Positions 45,669 to 64,000 of a stretch of 64,000 nucleotides of DNA are shown piece after piece. The stretch comes from Vezdaea acicularis (lineage: Eukaryota): contig JAPEUI010000041.1 of NCBI GenBank assembly GCA_026025075.1, forward strand, positions 1 through 64,000. The letters are read 5' to 3'. The position numbers and the translations under genes were made by a program. Numbering within the stretch: position 1 is the first letter of the stretch; each line of letters starts with the position of its first letter. The notes below the pieces were generated by a model. It was not told where the DNA came from. It ran no database searches and saw only the letters and a list, made by a program, of their open reading frames with translations.

Positions 45669-48614
45669 ATGTTTCAAAAAAGGTACGTCTCTCTCGACCT
45701 GGGGAAGTACATATAGGGCGTGCCCGTGCTTGCGCTCTCCCCCTTTTCTTTGTGAACATACACCCCCATGATACCTTCGTGCGAAGCTTTATCCGCTGAC
45801 GTTGTGCTCGCCGTAGGAGGAATTCGCAAAAGCCCGCCGACGAGCTGTATTCCAGCTTCAAACAAAACTTCCCCGGCATCAGGATCGCGACGTCGGCGGC
45901 CGAGCCGGAGAAGAGCAGCACCGCATCGATGAATAGTGGTTTGCCCAACGTGGCGGTGGACCATCGTGGAGAGTACGTCGATAGTTCATGTCTCTGGGGC
46001 TCTCCTCGGGGTTGCGCTGGCGCGGGCTTTGCGATGCCCTCACCCAGCCTAAGCGACCCTCTGCTACCCCCCGCAGAGTATTACTCCACTCGGAGCTTTT
46101 TTTTGGACGGGGAACTTTGAAGCTGACGATGTCTTTTTCCATTTCTAGGCACCTTGGTCCCGATCATGACCAGTTGAAAGATGCTGATGCCACGCCCAAG
46201 GGCATGCATGAGCCATGGCGATTCACCCCTTCGCTGATGGACGTGAACTCCTTTGCCTTCACCTCATTTGCGAATCAACCGCCGGGCTACTATACTCCCA
46301 CGCCCGGCGGGACGAATACGCTCTATCATCATACGGCCGGCGACCTGCACACCCCGACATTGGGGATGAGCATCGGGACACCACTGTCCCTGCCTACCTC
46401 GGCCAGTTCGTTGCAGCAGCAGGTGACCGCCATGGACATGCACGGATTTCACGCCCCGAGCATGCACCCCCATCAGTTTCAGAACTTCAATCCCTTCACT
46501 TCCCATGACTCTTTTGCCCCGAGCCATTTCTCCCATCATCCGGCGGGGTTCGATCAGATGGAGGACGACGCGGACGGAGACCTTTCGCCAACGGCAGGCT
46601 TTGGCCTGGACGGCCAAGTCCATGAATCTCCAACGCGGCCTTTCTCCTCTCATTACGAGAGCACTATGGGGGCCCCTCCCATTCCTACCACAGAAAAGTA
46701 AGTTCTCCCAAATCTTCACCCCCTGGGGAGTTGAAGGGTGGTTGGTGGGGAGGCGCTCAGTTGACAGGAGATTGCCTGGTGCTGGTGCCCGGACTCGTCG
46801 CAGTCTTTCGAAAACACTCAACAGCTAACAAATTCATCACAGGTTTCGGTTTCATGTCACACTAAACGCACCCACGGCGATGATCAGGCACGCGGATGAG
46901 ATCCCGATCACGTACCTGAACAAGGGCCAGGCCTACAGCATGTCGATCACGGACACCGCACCACCTCTGCCCTCAGCACATTCTGGACCCGTCAGGTATC
47001 GCACTTTCGTCCGGATCTCCTTCGAGGACGAGCAGCAGCGACAGAAACCCGGCGCATGCTGGCAACTCTGGAAAGAAGGTCGAGGGACGAACGAAGCGCA
47101 CCAACGGGGCGGCAAACTGCAGGCCGTTGAGTACGTCGAGGCGAGTTCAGCAAGCAACGAAGACGCAGCGAGGACGAAAGCCGAGTTGGAAACAGCTTCC
47201 TTCGATGGCTTTTCGGTCTTTTGGACGGCAGGTCCAAACGGAGCGGCCGATTGCTCGGTCGCGGTGCGGTTCAATTTCCTGTCTACAGACTTCAGTCACT
47301 CGAAAGGAGTCAAGGGCATTCCCGTGCGACTCTGCGCAAAGACCGAAGTTGTCCCATCGGATAGCTTGGACCCGACCGAGACGGCAGAGATCTGCTTCTG
47401 CAAGGTCAAGCTGTTCAGGGACCACGGTGCAGAGCGAAAACTATCGAACGATGTGGCTCACGTCAAGAAGACCATTGACAAGCTGAAGCAGCAGATCGCG
47501 CAAGTCGAGTCCGGAGTCAAGGACTCGGGAAAGCGGAAACGCAACTCGATGGTGGCCAAACCTCTTCCCAGCAAGATAGGTAAGGCGCCAAAGCACAAGA
47601 GGACGTGGTCCTTGTCGAGCGTTGGCTCTGGCGGTCGCAGCCAATCTGCCGACGACGACCTCTACAGCAAGCTGGCGACGGTGCAGGACATGTTCACAAG
47701 CACTCGACCGGTCAGCGTTCTATTCTTGCGAGGAGCGGACCTGGACGATCCAGACCTGTTCCCAGTCCGTCTTTCCGGCGAACCAGTCGATCTGACCAAA
47801 GTCTCCCTCGACCGACAAGACAGCTGGGACCGGAGGGAGAGTGGTGGCAACACGGTCGCCGCGACGGCTTCCTCGATGACTTCGCCGTCAATGAGTTCCG
47901 TGTCGTTCCCCGCTCAAGCTGTTCCAGCCACGAGCTTTTCAGCCCCTGCGTCGATCAAAAAGTCTCCTCAGCAAGTCCAGTTCGAGTGGACTCATATTCC
48001 TGTCACAGACGGAGATGTCCAGTCGTCGAATCCACAGCTGGCGAGCCCGCCCGATCAGATCGTGAAGGTTCCCCGGGCTGGTGCGCAGAACAACGAATCG
48101 TTGGCACAGTTCATCGAAGCCACGGGCATCGATTCCTCGTACAGACCGCCGGCAGAGCGGCCCATCAGACCAGGTGAGTTTACTGCTGTTGTTTTGTAAC
48201 TTGGTCTCCATCTTCATCTACTAACCCGATTTGCCAGTTGCATGTTTCTACATCCTTCAGAAGGCGACCGAGAATGTCCCGTCGGACGCTTACTACCGCG
48301 CCATCTATCTTATGCGACGAACAGTCAAAGACTTTGTCAACGGCGTCGCGACCAAGTGCGGCGTCGAGCCCACGCGGATCCTGCGAACGACGCACGTTCA
48401 CGAAAAGGGCTTGCAAGTCCTGGTCGACGACGACGTGATCAACGAGCTCCCTGAAGGCCAGGACATGCTCGTCGAGTTCCACTTCATCGAGAGCAAGCCG
48501 GTCGCGACGAACGTGTCGGAAGTCATCGTCGACGGCATCGTCGATCAGCCCGAGGGCTCGGCGCTGCAAGACAATAACAGCGCAATCGGCTATGAGATGA
48601 GACTGTTCTACTAG
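45669..48614 (+). CDS. grhl: Grainyhead/CP2-family transcription factor, 5 exons
   Basis: MFQKR (14-nt exon 45669-45682)|RNSQKPADEL..; CP2 domain FHVTLNAPTAM..EIPITYLNKGQAY, FNFLSTDFSHSKGVKGIPVRLC, CKVKLFRDHGAERK; C-terminal YYRAIYL..VDDDVI.ELPEGQDM. Confidence 0.93.
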
Positions 48615-53218: not shown

Positions 53219-55657
53219 TCATCGCGTGATGATGAGCGAGAAGCCGTCGACCCACTGGCCACAGGAGCCAGCGATGCCGGCAATGGTGTAGCCGCGGGGA
53301 GGAATTAATGTATGCCTAATATCTCTCGTTAGCTGATAGGCCCTCAACATTGGGTGCATAAGAAGTGTAATACCCCGAACCACCTGTGGCGTTCCCGAAA
53401 ACGCCCGACCTCCTCCCTGTACTCGTCAGAATCTCGACGCCATCAATCCAGAGCCCTGCTCTGAGATAAAAGCCCATCAGCGTCTCGCCTCTCCGCGTGT
53501 CCAGACTAAAGATGCTCGGCTTGCCGCCCCTCTTCCCAAACAGCTGTGTCGTGCGGTCCTCGTACATGAACTCAATCCCATCAAGCGCAAAACCATGAAA
53601 GACTTTGATCTGCAGCATCAGCTTCGTCTGGTGTACCACGTTCTCCAGGATGAGGTCTTGCGCTTGGCTGCCTTCGGTCTGGGAGAAGCCGAGTTTGCTG
53701 CCGCGGAAGCCAGCGCGGCCGTTCGGGAGCTTCATCAGGGCGGACTTCGATGCGAGGGCGCTGAAGTCTTCGACTGTGTGCTTGCCCTGGCCAGCGGCGA
53801 ATATGTCGAGCTTAATCCGTTTCTTTTGGCGGTCTGCTGGCAGGCGGCTCCGGAGGTCCGCTTCTGTCAGCATTACCTGTTGAAGGGGTCCGCCGCTGCC
53901 ATTTCCGTCAATGTACTCGATGTGGGTTCGACAGAGGTCGTCGCCCTCGCTAAATATTTCGATGAACGCTATTCCCGTCGTAGCTGTGACCATCACATTC
54001 CCGCTCTCGACTGCCCATACCTGGACACTGCCGTCAGAGCTTAGTACGGGGTCCGTCGGGATCTTGAAGCATGGATGATATCGGAATCGAAGGCAATCAA
54101 GCCTATGCCATGCACACTCGTCTTTTGGAAGACACAAGCGCTGCCCTGGAGACTTGGTCCGTGTCGAGAAAGGTTCTCTGCAGAGGAAGGTCCTGTTGAG
54201 TCTCACATAGTCCCTCAACATGATTCCGGACTCCTGATGGGGACTTCCAAATAGATGGCCAACTTCATGCAGGAACGCGCCGATCCCTATATTTGCCGCC
54301 TCCCAGTTGCTGCCGGACTCGTTGCAGTCATTCACAACATAGTTCGTATCTGTTCTTGTGCAGTCGGAAAAGGCCGAGACTACATCTTCTAAGCATGCAG
54401 GAAAGCTTTGTAGAGCATGAGAGCCGAAGATAGCGAGCTGGATGTTTCCATCTCCACCGCCCAAGGCGGCATGGCCCCTGACAACTCCTTTCTTCTTGTC
54501 CCAAGTAGTATCCATAAACAAGCACGCAACATACTGCTTCTGGTTCGGCGTAGGGTTGAAGTATCTTCGGACAGCTTCCATAGCGATCGAGAAAAGCTCT
54601 CCCTTCTTCCCGGCCGGTTCGTATTGCTGCGCAATCTCTAGATCCCGAATCTCTGCAACGGTCTTGTCACTTCTCACGACATGGATCCTAGCTTCATTCC
54701 TCATCTGCCCGCTATCACGGTCTCTTGAGCTGAGCGTACCGGGCTGCCACTCTTCTTCAAAGCGGAAACACCGTCTGCCAAACATGTTCCTATACATCTG
54801 CTCTCCCGTGAAGCTTTGCCATAGATATGCCGCAGTGCGGAACTTCCGGATCGCCGTGTCCAAACCGTTCCCCTCACGTTGGATTCGCTCGGGCACCGCA
54901 TCAAAAGTAGCAGGGGAGTCTTTTCCGAGTAAAATCACAAGTTGTAGGGGAGGTGCAGAGTCCAGTGGAAGATAGTTGACATTCAAGAAGGAGGCGTGCA
55001 TTGAGTTGGGTGTGGGGTGTGAAGGTCGCTTTGTCGATGTGAAATCAAAACGTAGCCGGTTTGGGCCAGGCGTCAGATGGACTAAAGCCTTGAAATGTGA
55101 ATCGCACACCGGCCAGCTAATAGAAGGGAAACCATCCTGGTGGTGATTGACGCTGACGCTTCCGTCAATTGCTTGTTGCGCTGGATCCCCAATTTGTCCA
55201 TATACTAAAAGCACTTTTTGGTGCACCTATGAGGAAAGACATATTTTAGCAAAGAAGGGCGCCGGAAAGTATCAATACTAAGATCACATACCCACGAATT
55301 GTCTGTTACAGACAATATTTGAGGGGCGTAAGGAGACGTCGGAGGGGGCGCCTTCATCGGTCCATTGGCTGATCCGAGTCCCATGATACTATATCTGCTC
55401 TGAGCTGACCCTGCAGAAGGCCTCTTGGGCAGATCCGGTGCCAGCCCATTCGGCGTTAACAGATTCGGAGAGGATGAATGAGGTTGAAGAGTTGAGGGAG
55501 GTGTTGTCGAGCCATAATATGAGCTCAGCGTGGAGGTTGACTGCGCTGTGGGCACCGTTGAAATGGTTGAGTTTGAGTTGGACGAAGACTTGTCGGTGCT
55601 CCGGAAGCTTGCGCGTGATCGACGCCTGAGGTCCTTCAGGTCCTTGAAGAAGGGCAT
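53219..55657 (-). CDS. Putative zinc metallopeptidase (YIL108W-like) with C-terminal jacalin-like domain, 3 exons
   Basis: HEXXH motif FLHEVGHLFGSPH, GHAALGGG, IMLRDY; C-terminal G..LDGIEF / G.WIDG repeats; introns 55291-55227 and ~53372-53316; last exon HTLIPPRGY..WVDGFSLIITR*. Confidence 0.9.
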
Positions 55658-57292: not shown

Positions 57293-58550
57293 ATGGGTTC
57301 GCTGCTGGAGATGGACCAGCCCGGGATAGCCGACAAGATCATACGCAGGGCGGAGGTTGCAAAGGTAGATACTCCTCTTATCTCACACTTCTCTAGCAAA
57401 CCCTTGGGTTTCAGATTGTTGGCCTTACGAACGTGTGATCTGACATGTCTCCCCGCAGAGAGCCCGCCTTCTCGTCGATCGTCTTGGTCTCGCCAGCTTC
57501 AAGACAAAGCATGGCTTAGAACATCTGTCGTTCGATGTGATAGAGCCACGCATAGACCAAAAGTTGCAACAAATGAAGCGTAGCCGTCCAAATTCTAGAG
57601 GAGAGGTTTTCTCAGATACATCGTCAAGCATGTCCGATACTCAATTTCCTGCTGAGATGGTTGCCTCGTCCCCTCTTGGGGCTCCCATATTCTCAGACGA
57701 AGCGTTGGACGCTGGGAGCCGAAGCAGTTTCCGGAAGAGGCCTATTACTCAGCCCAACTTCGAATCTTCAGACCCTACTTTAGGTCCGAGAAAACGGCCA
57801 CGGTCAATGTCTTCGGCTCTTCATTCTTCCCGTATACCCCAAAATTCCTGGCGTGAAAGGAGACCACACACACAATCCTCGCCCGTTTACCATCGGCATA
57901 ATTCACGCTTTCCTGTTTCTCATGGAGCGAATCTCTCTTTCGTCTCCGAGACCACTACTATTCCCGATCATCATTCACCACCACATTTCGGCTCAGGCTC
58001 TGACAACGATGACAACGATCTTCCTATGCACTCCTTCCAAGTCTCATCTCAGATCCGGTCCTCCCCACCTCGAACACCACCACCTAGCCGTCGTGGACCT
58101 AAGTCTATCTTCCGGAAACCTTCCCTCCGTTCTCCTATACTCTCGAAGAGCACCCCAAAACCTGGCGAAGAAGCAGCCGATCTTCTAATGCTAATCGCTA
58201 CCTCTCCCTCACCAGCAACCCCAACGACAAAGCGAGGCAATCTGACGCCACTTCAAAAGTTCGACGGCCACTTTGGGGATCCCAAGACACCCGGGTCTGC
58301 ATTCAACTATTACGACTTTGTGAACTTTACGCCAAGCCCGTCACAACATCCCGACTTTTGGAGGACGCCGGGAAGAACGCCGGGAATGCCCGGAAGTGCA
58401 AAGACCCCCGGAGCGATGAGAGAAGCGAGGAGAAAACTTAATTTTGATTCGTTAGCCCCTCCCACGGGCGGTAGTCCAGAGCTCAGCAGACTGGGTGGAG
58501 CGACCCCGAAGGGGCTCGGGATGGAGCTGGGCGGTGAGCTGGTCTCCTAA
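57293..58550 (+). CDS. Whi5/Nrm1/Stb1-like G1/S transcriptional co-regulator, 2 exons
   Basis: MGSLL..RRAEVAK|RARLLVDRLGLASFKTKHG (Whi5-type L..RL.LA.FK motif); intron 57364-57458; many S/T-P sites; EEAADLLMLIATSP helix. Confidence 0.65.
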
Positions 58551-60472: not shown

Positions 60473-61679
60473 ATGGGTCTCTCAGATTTCAACCTTTCTG
60501 CTAACGATGATACACAACTCAGCTAGGTTCTGGGCAGTATTCCCTGCAACGTATGCCAACCTAACGTCCATATGACCCTGCGGCCACCCCGTCGTTCATA
60601 TCCTCGCTGCCAATTCTCCCACCAACACCATCTCAAGACAGTCACCAGCCCTCTCAATCTCCTGTCTCCACCTTCACGCAATCCACGCAGGTGCAACCTC
60701 ATGGGGTCTCAAAGTCACTCTTTGATCCACATTTTCCTTATCGACGAGGGTGCCATCAGCGCCACCCCAAGAAAACCCCTTGTTAACTGGCCTGTTTCAG
60801 TTAACATTGCACGATACGGACGTGTCACTGCTGATACACGGATTCTGGGAAATCCTGCTTCAGAAGCAGGAGATGGTTCAACCTCGGCACCAACGGTACC
60901 ACATCCATAATCAACGGGAACTTCCACATCAACATTCACGTTGAAACATTGCAGCATTATACAAGAGTTTCGCTTCTTCAAGTATTGCACTGGTAGCTGA
61001 CTCTTCATCACCGCATTTGCTACCTTCAAGGACCGCTACATAAATTCGGCAGACTCTTGTATAATCTCTCTTCGGCCGCCCTCATCGGTAACATGGATAG
61101 ATGACCTCAAGCTCCCTATCAAGAGGCCTGGCAATACGTCGGCAGCATACTTCGTATCCTCTGCAGTCATAATCCTCACCATTGCATCTAAAAAGACGGA
61201 AACCGCTGTGGTTATCGATATTTTTTCGAAGTGGGTTGAAACTACCTTAGCACTTCGCACCATCCATGCAACCCCAAGACGCAAGACTGATTTCCGACGT
61301 CGAACTTGCCAGCAAGCTCCACTGGCTCCTTAGCCTTCTTCTATCGGGTCCCTCGCATTCGGTGTGAGTTTGTGTGTTATGATTTACACTCGCGTATCAA
61401 GCCCTTTATTGGAGTCCTTTGTTATCAAACTTTAAGAATTACTGAGGCGGTGTGTGGAGTGCGAAGCTCATACGTAGTGAGAAGCCTTCACTGATGGCGA
61501 GCCTCCTGGCCCTTCGAGCCATTTCGGATCGGTTCGTGGAAACCTTTGGTCAGCCCTTTACAGAGAAGGCAGTAGAAGGGGCTCGATCGATTATGGAACA
61601 AAGAACGAAGCATCCTGAAACACCAAACTTTTGCTTTGGGGCATCTGAGTGGTCTTCAATCGGTCCGCATATAAGGTGA
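60473..61679 (+). pseudogene. Probable decayed protein-coding gene
   Basis: Protein-like segments in shifting frames separated by stops (APYQEAWQYVGSILRIL; LISDVELASKLHWLLSLLL; GTGAGT..TAG intron; SLMASLLALRAISDRFVETFG); no intact model found. Confidence 0.3.
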
Positions 61680-62363
61680 GATACAGGAGCTTGTACCTAA
61701 TACTTTAGGGGCAGACGAATGTCCTCTCCAATATCCCCCCCTGAACTCTGGACCCGTACCTTCAGGTTCAGGCTTAGACTGAAGCAAGCGAAGATATTGC
61801 TTTATATATTACAAGCTCACGATGCAGGACTCAGCCCCATCAACACTTTTTTTCCTCCTGGTCATCTTCCGGGTTGCTCCTGACCTTCGAAAGCATGTGG
61901 TGCCCGGAGTGTTCTCAGCCCCTATTTAGTCACACCAGCACATAACACAACTGGCAGCATCATGTTTACATTATCCTTGAACTCTCTCGTGTTCGAGATC
62001 CCCCGAACGACGCCTGTAACACCAACACCTGTGGTGTGTACAACACGCTTGCCCTGCCCTGTGTTTAGATGCCCTATAAAACAAACCAGGTCAAGACCCT
62101 TTTCCTTTCTATCTTCCTAAATACCCCTCTAGAGTCTTACCCCCACCCCAACCACCCAACACAAGACACCAACACGCGAACACCATCTGCAATACCCCCC
62201 ACCTGCGCCCACCCAGCCCCATAAGAAGCCATCCCCCAGCACGACCATATACCCCCTCTCTAAATTCACCTTTCCCCGGAGGCTTATCTCTACATTCGCT
62301 ACTCCCACAACTGCTGGCCCTCTTCCTAACGATACAAACCTATCTTCAGATTCAGCTTCAGCA

Positions 62364-64000
62364 ATGGCTATTAGGTTATTCCATCTTAGACAAGATCATA
62401 CCGACTCAAGGGTAGCCTCCATAGTCCGTAATACCCCGCAAAGCAGTCACTAACACAGTAATAATAGTTCGAACTAGACGAGGACGAGGTTATCAAGCGT
62501 CTTCCAATTGTTAAAATTAAAGGGGTAAGTACCTCCCCCCCTTTCTCATATACTACTGCTAACACCTGCTTCAAGCCCCTGACCGGCGGACACAAAGCTC
62601 GACATGTCCATTATATCAGAACCTTCATTGACTGGGACTATGAAATATACCAACTCCTCTTACAAGATGGTCGTGAAGTTAAGGAAATTTACGTCACCGT
62701 CAAGCCGGATATAAACCCAGATACATTTCATCGCCGCATATGGCAAAAACATCAACTCTCTGGGTCATATGGGTTATGGCTACCTGGCCCATATGAGAAT
62801 TATATTTTCCGCCACGTAAGTCGAGCACTTGCCCCTTAGCTCATTACTGACACGATTGTAGCGAATGGAAAGACTGAGAGCCATACCTCATGCTCCATTG
62901 ATGAGTAAGGAGGTGGTTGAGTTTAATTTACAGAGGGATCCCAACGATTGGCCATTTGATTCAATTGCGGCATCGCCAATTGATCTCGCTCCAATCGATC
63001 CCATTTCCATTTTCAATCTCGAAGAAGGGAATTACCGAACGAACAACATTATCGTCAAGCTGCCACCTCAATCTCTATCTGAGGTCACCCCGCCCGCCGT
63101 GTCCGAGACTGAAATTAAACAAGAAGACACAGTTTCGGACGGTGAAAGCGCAACTGAGGCCACGGCAGAACGACTGCCATTGAGAGAAGTGGCACACAAC
63201 TCTCGTGTGAAACCAACCTTGCTCAAAGACAATGGTAGCGATCTGGAGAACAAGGAGAATGCTCCCGCGAAACGCCCATCTTCTAGTGCAATTAAAATCT
63301 TTGAGGACCCTGAAGTTAAGGATATTACAGAGCAGGAGCCGGTCAACAACCGTTATCGACCAGATAAACGCAAGCAGGCAGAGAAGGCCGCTAAGAGGGC
63401 GGAAGAGAAAAGGTGCAAAAATGCTGAGAAGAAATCAGCCAAGGAGGCAGAAAGAGCGGAAAAAGCGGCTAGGCAGAAGGCTGAAAAGGAGGCTGCTGTC
63501 GACAAGAGTAGCGAGGTTGTTGCAGCTCAGCCCATGCGCGAAGACAGCGCCTCTAAGCATGCCTCCAGAGTCCAGGGCGCTGACTGCACATCATCCGCAC
63601 TTACCACGGTACTCGCAGATGTGGATGACGAATCAGCTCTCAAGGACCAATCCCGGGAGAGCTATCCGCTTTTGAAGCATTTGAGATCCTACCCTGTGCT
63701 GGAATCAGCCGTCGACAGATACGACCATGCCCTGGCCGAAAAGAGGGTTCATCCAGATGCAACTGATCCAGCATATCAATGTACCATACAACATGCTGGC
63801 GAGATTTTGATGAAGCGACTTCGCACATATCTTGAAGAGATCAAGAACCTCTATGCGGATATATCACTGCCGCAGCTTGAATCATCTTGGGAGTGCTTAG
63901 GGGAGATTCGCAAGCGTCTCCAAATTGTCGATAAGAAGGCCCTTACGGTGGTCGAGAAGAGCAAGGACATCCAGACCCTAGTGGATGATGGGGCTGTAAC
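62364..64000 (+). CDS. Orphan protein (partial, runs off window) with clustered APC/C degron-like motifs and a charged helix
   Basis: Exons 62364-62411 (or -62423), 62468-62524, 62576-62815, 62862->64000; all junctions phase 0 with CTAAC/CTGAC branch sites; last exon open for ~379 codons; TATAAAA at ~62075; missing from the ORF track because there is no stop in the window. Confidence 0.8.

Follow-up and report, generated by a model that had tools for sequence, protein, structure and literature searches.

A Lineage-Restricted Orphan Protein of Vezdaea acicularis with a D-Box, KEN and ABBA-Like Cassette, a Candidate Multi-Degron Substrate of APC/C-Cdh1

Introduction

The window analysed here, a stretch of 64,000 nucleotides (contig bases 1–64000 of a 130 kb contig in a 19 Mb genome), contains at its 3' end the beginning of an orphan gene, whose product carries a D-box, a KEN box and an ABBA-like motif in close succession. 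A preliminary description, made from the sequence alone, proposed a pseudosubstrate inhibitor of the APC/C, comparable to Acm1 and Mad3, or a tightly timed substrate. The locus therefore raises the question of whether the three motifs constitute a genuine ligand of APC/C coactivators and, if so, whether the protein is a substrate, an inhibitor or a diverged copy of a known regulator.

Results

Gene Model and Genomic Setting

Completion of the gene past the end of the window, where it runs for a further 886 bases, yielded four exons encoding 789 aa, with the motifs in exon 4 (Table 1). The spliced translation is identical to the database protein P0002, the record of which is itself a gene prediction. 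All three introns are of the GT-AG type: intron 1 is 56 nt long, with a CTAAC branch site and an AG end; intron 2 is 51 nt long (GTAAGT...AG); and intron 3 is 46 nt long (GTAAGT...AG), with a CTGAC branch site. The donor of exon 1, GTAGCC, matches the consensus weakly; 12 bases further on is GTCCGT, which could act as an alternative donor in the same frame. Exon 4 is independently backed by the homologue P0003, while exons 1–3 lie outside the P0003 alignment and have no homologue evidence.

Table 1. Coordinates of the orphan gene, its motifs and predicted structural elements.
Feature	Position	Strand	Remarks
Forkhead-type site GTAAACA	61963..61969	−	~400 bases 5' of the ATG; weak
Exon 1	62364..62411	+	residues 1–16, ATG start; spliced model = P0002
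Exon 2	62468..62524	+	residues 17–35; spliced model = P0002
Exon 3	62576..62815	+	residues 36–115; spliced model = P0002
Exon 4	62862..64886 (contig; window ends at 64000)	+	residues 116–789; 674-codon open frame; P0003 aligns across
D-box RLPLREVAHN	63171..63200	+	residues 219–228; R1, P3, L4, basic 5, E6, V7, N10
KEN box NKENAP	63249..63266	+	residues 245–250; Asn at −1, acids upstream, Pro two residues after
ABBA-like motif IKIFED	63291..63308	+	residues 259–264; Ile at 1 (non-canonical), Glu at 5, Asp at 6
E/K/A-rich single helix (predicted)	63366..63500	+	residues 284–328; 13 lysines in 284–330
Helical bundle (predicted)	63642..63962	+	residues about 376–482; fold not assignable

The gene is preceded by an ordinary Whi5-like gene (57444–58550, + strand), and a gene encoding a protein kinase with a long fused array of ankyrin repeats (contig 66842–70240, + strand) is found shortly 3' of it; no tie between these neighbours and the orphan gene was seen. 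The window also contains an ordinary gene for a CP2/grainyhead transcription factor (46829–48614, + strand), another for a metallopeptidase with a jacalin-like end (53316–55226, − strand), and a 97-codon open frame resembling a protein fragment, with no Pfam match (61036–61329, − strand). The seven promoter patterns tried did not reveal a convincing cell-cycle promoter element in the upstream region; ACGCGA at −190 is at the background level (1.07 expected per 800 bases), and GTAAACA, a forkhead-type motif, occurs at three sites in the window, with 0.04 expected per 800 bases.

Three Motifs within 46 Residues

The stop-free translation of 63171–63308 (+ strand) gives the 46 residues reported earlier, and all three motifs are present where the preliminary description had placed them in the last exon. 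Judged by their residues, all three fit extended consensuses. The ten-residue D-box consensus is given as RxxLx[D/E][hydrophobic]xN[N/S] (PMC5717348), and the D-box of P0002 agrees with it at R1, L4, E6, V7 and N10, in addition to the common Pro at position 3. Only His at position 9 departs from this consensus, so the claim that the Asn comes one place late does not hold, since Asn at position 10 is the consensus residue. The first four letters, RLPL, are the same as in the consensus D-box peptide RLPLGDISN, as quoted in PMC12401543. The KEN box, in the context DLENKENAP, matches the extended pattern ([DNE]KEN, preceding acids, Pro one or two residues after); the short form KENxxP has its Pro one residue later (PMC5717348). 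IKIFED corresponds to the degenerate ABBA pattern, as had been noted, but not to the canonical one (Fx[ILV][FY]x[DE]), the Phe of position 1 being replaced by Ile. Degenerate motifs with a non-Phe residue at position 1 can work, as shown by BubR1 (PMC5179498). IKIFED is the only degenerate ABBA match in P0002, and the same is true of its counterpart IIIFED in P0003. The order is D-KEN-ABBA, with 17 residues between the D-box and the KEN box, 10 separating the KEN box from the ABBA-like motif, and 30 between the D-box and the ABBA-like motif.

Homologue Searches and Conservation

The only homologue found is P0003, a protein of 690 aa whose alignment with P0002 starts at Met117, extends to its end and shows 70% identity (465/665). 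A word-indexed search with exon 4 gave two matches among the 8,000 candidates scored, namely P0002 itself and P0003, and a phmmer search, run against 1.84 billion representatives, matched P0003 and P0004; the latter was dismissed as a homologue, being a tandem-repeat protein and a compositional match. A search with residues 1–165 among proteins of 30–432 aa found no homologue, so distant orthologues keeping only the region of exons 1–3 could be missed. Two metagenome scans confirmed 0/599 and 0/55 candidate stretches, and the ESM Atlas gave no usable match, from which neither absence nor novelty follows. The main texts of the literature yielded nothing on P0002, a protein without a name to search under.

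The cassette (residues 216–265) is identical in P0003 at 44 of 50 positions, compared with 70% overall and 117/202 (58%) in the tail; when 70% identity is assumed, the binomial p is 0.0025. It ties for the best 50-residue window from Met117 on, where 18 of 624 windows reach 44/50. The D-box is fully identical (10/10), the KEN region (243–250) retains 7/8 residues, and the ABBA motif retains 6/7 (IIIFED), the lone change affecting the free position 2. The linker between the D-box and the KEN box (229–244, 14/16) and the region of the E/K/A-rich helix (47 residues, 284–330, 41/47) are conserved as well as the motifs, which, in this one homologue pair, are thus not sharp islands. The preliminary description had looked to conserved islands in orthologues as a check; the motifs are indeed kept in P0003, but so is the linker, and a single pair is thin evidence.

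Chance of the Motif Trio

In 565,192 shuffles of P0002, where the trio was required within 45 residues, minimal patterns were found 2,194 times (0.39%). This number fell to 95 when the D-box alone was extended, to 25 when the KEN proline was required as well, and to 4 with all extensions (7e-6 per shuffle); per protein, the trio is beyond chance. Among 134 open frames of at least 200 aa in 280 kb of the genome, the minimal trio occurs within 45 aa in one, the orphan gene, and within 100 aa in two, the second being an E2 enzyme with two KENs.

In the genome censuses, introns can hide neighbouring motifs. In the KEN census, the pattern [DNEK]KEN-x(1-2)-P occurred at 65 distinct sites, of which 37 lie in frames of at least 100 aa (the 28 in shorter frames were dropped); three of these 37 have an extended D-box and two have an ABBA-like motif within 60 aa, and both are found together only in the orphan gene. 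This census, which demanded one of the residues D, N, E and K ahead of KEN, overlooked a gene with the layout of Acm1 (GKEN; see below) and is not exhaustive. In the D-box census, with 54 of the 55 pattern rows examined, 21 distinct sites translate as R-x-[PA]-L and 10 are in frames of at least 100 aa; of these, only that of the orphan gene has both a KEN and an ABBA motif within 100 aa. A KEN-then-F-ABBA pattern had no match across the genome. Reversed control patterns matched 23 and 25 times, versus 33 and 35 for the KEN patterns, and 25 and 25 times, versus 31 and 24 for the D-box patterns, which means that single motifs mean little and are often noise.

Perhaps one or more of the motifs are accidental, lying in a slowly evolving stretch without coactivator binding in vivo. 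The frequency of the minimal trio in shuffles, the near-equal frequency of the controls and the equal conservation of the non-motif neighbours speak for such an accident, as does the origin of the finding in a very large scan, since events of 1e-5 will occur when millions of proteins are scanned. On the other hand, the simultaneous fit to all three extended consensuses is rare even among shuffles, and the only change in the ABBA motif is on a free position, while the 8 residues directly preceding the motif are just 5/8 identical. Moreover, the remaining motif clusters met in the genome are all in APC/C regulators or likely ones (Mad3/Bub1, the gene with the Acm1 layout and the E2 enzyme with two KENs). 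A chance origin is considered unlikely, though far from negligible.

Predicted Protein Architecture

Modelling predicts an alpha/beta N-terminal region, a disordered motif stretch, a charged single helix, a helical bundle, a long acidic tail and a basic end. The model of P0002, built from a two-sequence alignment, is weak throughout (mean pLDDT 38), with pLDDT below 50 over residues 93–282. The FoldIndex of the motif region is −0.08 to −0.16, and this composition, together with the low pLDDT of the weak model, indicates that the motif stretch is probably disordered. The linker was described earlier as acidic, but the cassette carries almost no net charge (+1 over 216–265), the acidic part lying upstream (net −7 over 166–215). 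The E/K/A-rich helix proposed to follow the motifs was predicted as well, with pLDDT about 80 in its core.

The N-terminal region, including exon 3, is probably folded as alpha/beta according to the models, the second of which comprised exons 2–3 with intron 2 read through and ended at residue 115; a putative ubiquitin-like fold of residues about 55–145 is a guess. Structural comparison of the low-confidence models found only unrelated chains for the N-terminal region (best Z 6.3, rmsd 3.9, 90 aligned) and unrelated bundles for the helical bundle (best Z 9.3, rmsd 3.6, 112 aligned; Foldseek best E 0.16). There was no Pfam match below E 0.5 for P0002 or P0003, and family, PDB sequence and fold searches found no significant match for any part of P0002, in accordance with the initial impression that the remainder of the protein resembles nothing recognised; it is a true orphan.

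The acidic tail (contig 64000–64886) contains conserved islands at residues 525–545, 589–617, 735–755 and 770–787. These islands include a short helix, predicted to lie ahead of KLR, and the basic C-terminus, whose end carries W-L-P-F-x-W (WLPFDWKG in P0002). This C-terminus is neither an LRRL tail of the Emi1/UBE2S type nor an IR tail of the coactivator type. P0002 contains three minimal S/T-P sites and no full CDK site (S/T-P-x-K/R), and no extended D-box precedes residue 219. The B56-type pattern matches P0002 five times, but this pattern and the PxL and STP patterns are too loose to read. The charged helix, helical bundle, tail islands and basic C-terminus would suggest a nuclear scaffold.

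Other APC/C-Related Genes of the Genome

The canonical pattern F-x-[IV]-[FY]-E-D had 21 matches in the genome, versus 10 for the control, and one of the 21 has a KEN and a D-box nearby. It belongs to a gene of contig C261 (about 132660–134200; stretch L114:736-2274, − strand) that has the layout of Acm1 and no Pfam or PDB sequence match. The product contains an N-terminal D-box-like RRPFGMLDN, WFFDIYED, a helix-like stretch, GKENVPP at +40, RAPLGDL at +97 and three full CDK sites, and ACGCGT is located about 414 bases upstream. From its sequence, this gene appears more likely than the orphan to be the fungus's Cdh1 inhibitor. A study on Aspergillus nidulans reports no obvious homologue of Acm1, Emi1 or Rca1 (PMC6078057), and where Cdh1 inhibitors of moulds are sought, the C261 gene is a better candidate than the orphan.

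A securin-like multi-exon gene (C16; stretch L175, about 1000–2300, + strand) encodes DQEN near its start, the D-box RAPLGFKTTN and EIEYMPPKP. The Pfam securin model matched nowhere in the genome and missed this gene; its result is uninformative. The securin Glu pseudo-cleavage pattern, [DE]-hydrophobic-E-aromatic-x-P, is absent from P0002. The E2 enzyme (UQ_con; C110, stretch L024:4079-5455, + strand), which is presumably UBE2S-like, has a long tail that contains two KENs as well as KRPLSDL and ends in GLKRL. The Mad3/Bub1 gene is split across two overlapping contig ends (C200 end and C151 start), its ABBA-KEN-ABBA cassette being intact, and it uses the degenerate ABBA motifs LAIFSD and MAVFKD.

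Coactivators and the ABBA Pocket

The genome encodes Cdc20, Cdh1 and a third activator, which is read here as Ama1-like; the upstream frame of the latter (C306) contains a canonical ABBA motif, FTIYKD. Cdh1 is 81–93% identical to Cdh1 of filamentous ascomycetes, and the best-scoring fungal matches, among those listed, come from Geoglossomycetes, Sarea and Pleopsidium. In the Acm1-Cdh1 complex, as described in PMC3690534, K333 of Cdh1 is the partner of Glu65 in the A motif, whose aromatics sit at I311 and P374. These sites were mapped by a hand-read alignment, with the named residues in register: Cdh1 of this genome has Ile, Arg and Pro at I311, K333 and P374, whereas its Cdc20 has Ser, Glu and Ala. 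Two of the five A-motif contact residues are changed in this Cdh1 (L325 to Tyr and I344 to Thr). Among 119 fungal Cdh1 matches, I311 is kept in 116, K/R333 in 115 and P374 in 115. Position 5 of the ABBA-like motif is Glu in the orphan, versus Ser and Lys in the Mad3/Bub1 motifs. As the facing site is Arg in Cdh1 and Glu in Cdc20, the motif appears Cdh1-leaning, and the cassette would prefer Cdh1 over Cdc20.

Discussion

The best reading of these data is that the orphan may be a lineage-restricted multi-degron substrate of APC/C-Cdh1, a reading that we regard as having about an even chance; that the protein is a real APC/C ligand, substrate and inhibitor taken together, seems fairly probable. 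This agrees best with the second option of the preliminary description, a timed substrate. The motifs fit their consensuses, are probably disordered and are kept in P0003. The segment 219–264 would give the APC/C a multi-degron handle that favours Cdh1 as coactivator, and the protein would be ubiquitinated and then destroyed in late mitosis/G1. The D-box would bind the Cdh1-Apc10 co-receptor and be reinforced either by the KEN box, which follows after 17 residues, or by the ABBA-like motif, which follows after 30, in alternating modes like those of cyclin A2. Such alternation is suggested because the KEN site is on top of the propeller whereas the ABBA groove is on its lower face, and 10 residues probably cannot connect the two on one propeller. 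A distance of at least 60 Å has to be covered between the D-box and the ABBA pocket (PMC6712056), which 30 residues can span. Lysines are plentiful around the cassette, and those within and after it may accept ubiquitin.

The same motifs might instead belong to a lineage-specific pseudosubstrate or competitor that acts on APC/C-Cdh1 or on the Ama1-like activator, occupies two or three pockets tightly or bridges two coactivators, and is perhaps meiotic like Mes1. APC/C inhibitors of the Acm1 kind evolve fast. Three motif classes in 46 residues is a density typical of inhibitors (PMC3690534, PMC5179498); the Glu at ABBA position 5 is of the Acm1 type, the A-motif pocket is kept in 115–119 of 119 fungal Cdh1 sequences, and the genome encodes three activators. 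However, the KEN box precedes the D-box in Acm1, Mes1 and OSD1, and the A motif comes first in Acm1 (PMC3690534), an order that is reversed here. The gap of 10 residues between KEN and ABBA is short, and shorter BubR1 spacers abolish function (PMC5179498), although BubR1 spacers are described as highly variable between species (10.1101/088161). The orphan also has neither a full CDK site nor an IR or LRRL tail, its length of 789 aa with predicted folded parts is unfavourable, and the separate C261 gene combines the Acm1 layout with three full CDK sites. Taken together with the presence of Mad3/Bub1 elsewhere, these features do not support the Acm1/Mad3-like pseudosubstrate originally proposed, and an inhibitory role in general seems rather improbable. 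A second, lineage-specific APC/C inhibitor independent of Acm1, with reversed order and a spacing too tight for a single propeller, switching modes or bridging coactivators and tying APC/C-Cdh1 to a structure or to meiosis, would be improbable too. The substrate reading appears to require fewer assumptions than the inhibitor, but the two are not exclusive, since Mes1 is described as both substrate and inhibitor of the APC/C (PMC3084671), and sequence cannot separate them with certainty.

That the orphan is a known APC/C-linked protein (the Acm1-like family, securin, Mad3/Bub1 or a long Cdc26) in highly diverged form is very improbable. Such proteins are disordered and fast-diverging (PMC6690013), but this reading is largely refuted by the lack of any Pfam match for P0002 and P0003 at the threshold given above, by the absence of similarity between P0002 and the C261 product (BLASTP best E 4.7), by the separate securin-like and Mad3/Bub1 genes, and by two domain searches in which the orphan gene is single-copy in the genome. 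As the known posts are filled by the gene with the Acm1 layout, the securin-like gene and Mad3/Bub1, the orphan would be an addition. If the cassette works, a complete D-box/KEN/ABBA handle would have arisen in a lineage-restricted protein, in a motif order unlike that of the inhibitors and substrates compared, and it would represent a natural ligand of the A-motif pocket, which nearly all of the filamentous-ascomycete Cdh1 sequences examined retain. The reach of this is narrow, with two known sequences from fungi that are maybe hard to handle.

Comparison with Known Systems

Acm1, the Cdh1 pseudosubstrate inhibitor of S. cerevisiae (PDB 4BH6), resembles the orphan in having an A/ABBA motif with Glu at position 5, a KEN box and also a D-box within about 50–70 disordered residues, and the matching Cdh1 pocket residues are found in this genome. 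In Acm1, however, the order is A motif, helix, KEN, D-box (A-KEN-D), with KEN binding the top of the propeller and the A motif its lower face, and in Mes1 and OSD1, KEN is followed by the D-box (PMC3690534), whereas the orphan is D-KEN-ABBA. It also differs from Acm1 in the absence of a helix after the ABBA motif, of an N-terminal Cdc20 D-box and of a full CDK site, and no sequence similarity between the two was detected.

The BubR1/Mad3 cassette likewise contains a D-box, then KEN, then an ABBA motif with a non-Phe residue at position 1 (PMC5179498). Unlike BubR1/Mad3, the orphan has no TPR (no PF08311 match), no N-terminal KEN, no ABBA before KEN and a single ABBA motif, and its KEN-to-ABBA distance is 13 residues, versus 36 in BubR1 and 26 in the Mad3/Bub1 of the same genome. 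The N-terminus of cyclin A2 shares with the orphan a D-box located 5' of the ABBA motif, at 41 residues there versus 30 here, and has a KEN-type motif, to which the orphan's KEN may be likened, and alternative binding modes (PMC6712056). The orphan differs from it in lacking a cyclin fold, in the location of KEN between the D-box and the ABBA motif, and in an ABBA motif that looks like the Cdh1 type and not the Cdc20 type. Compared with Hsl1-type APC/C-Cdh1 substrates, the orphan has an additional ABBA-like motif and no kinase or other recognisable domain, but it shares with them the combination of a strong D-box with a KEN box in a large protein; in Hsl1, two degrons lead to an about 100-fold longer dwell time on Cdh1 (PMC8764033).
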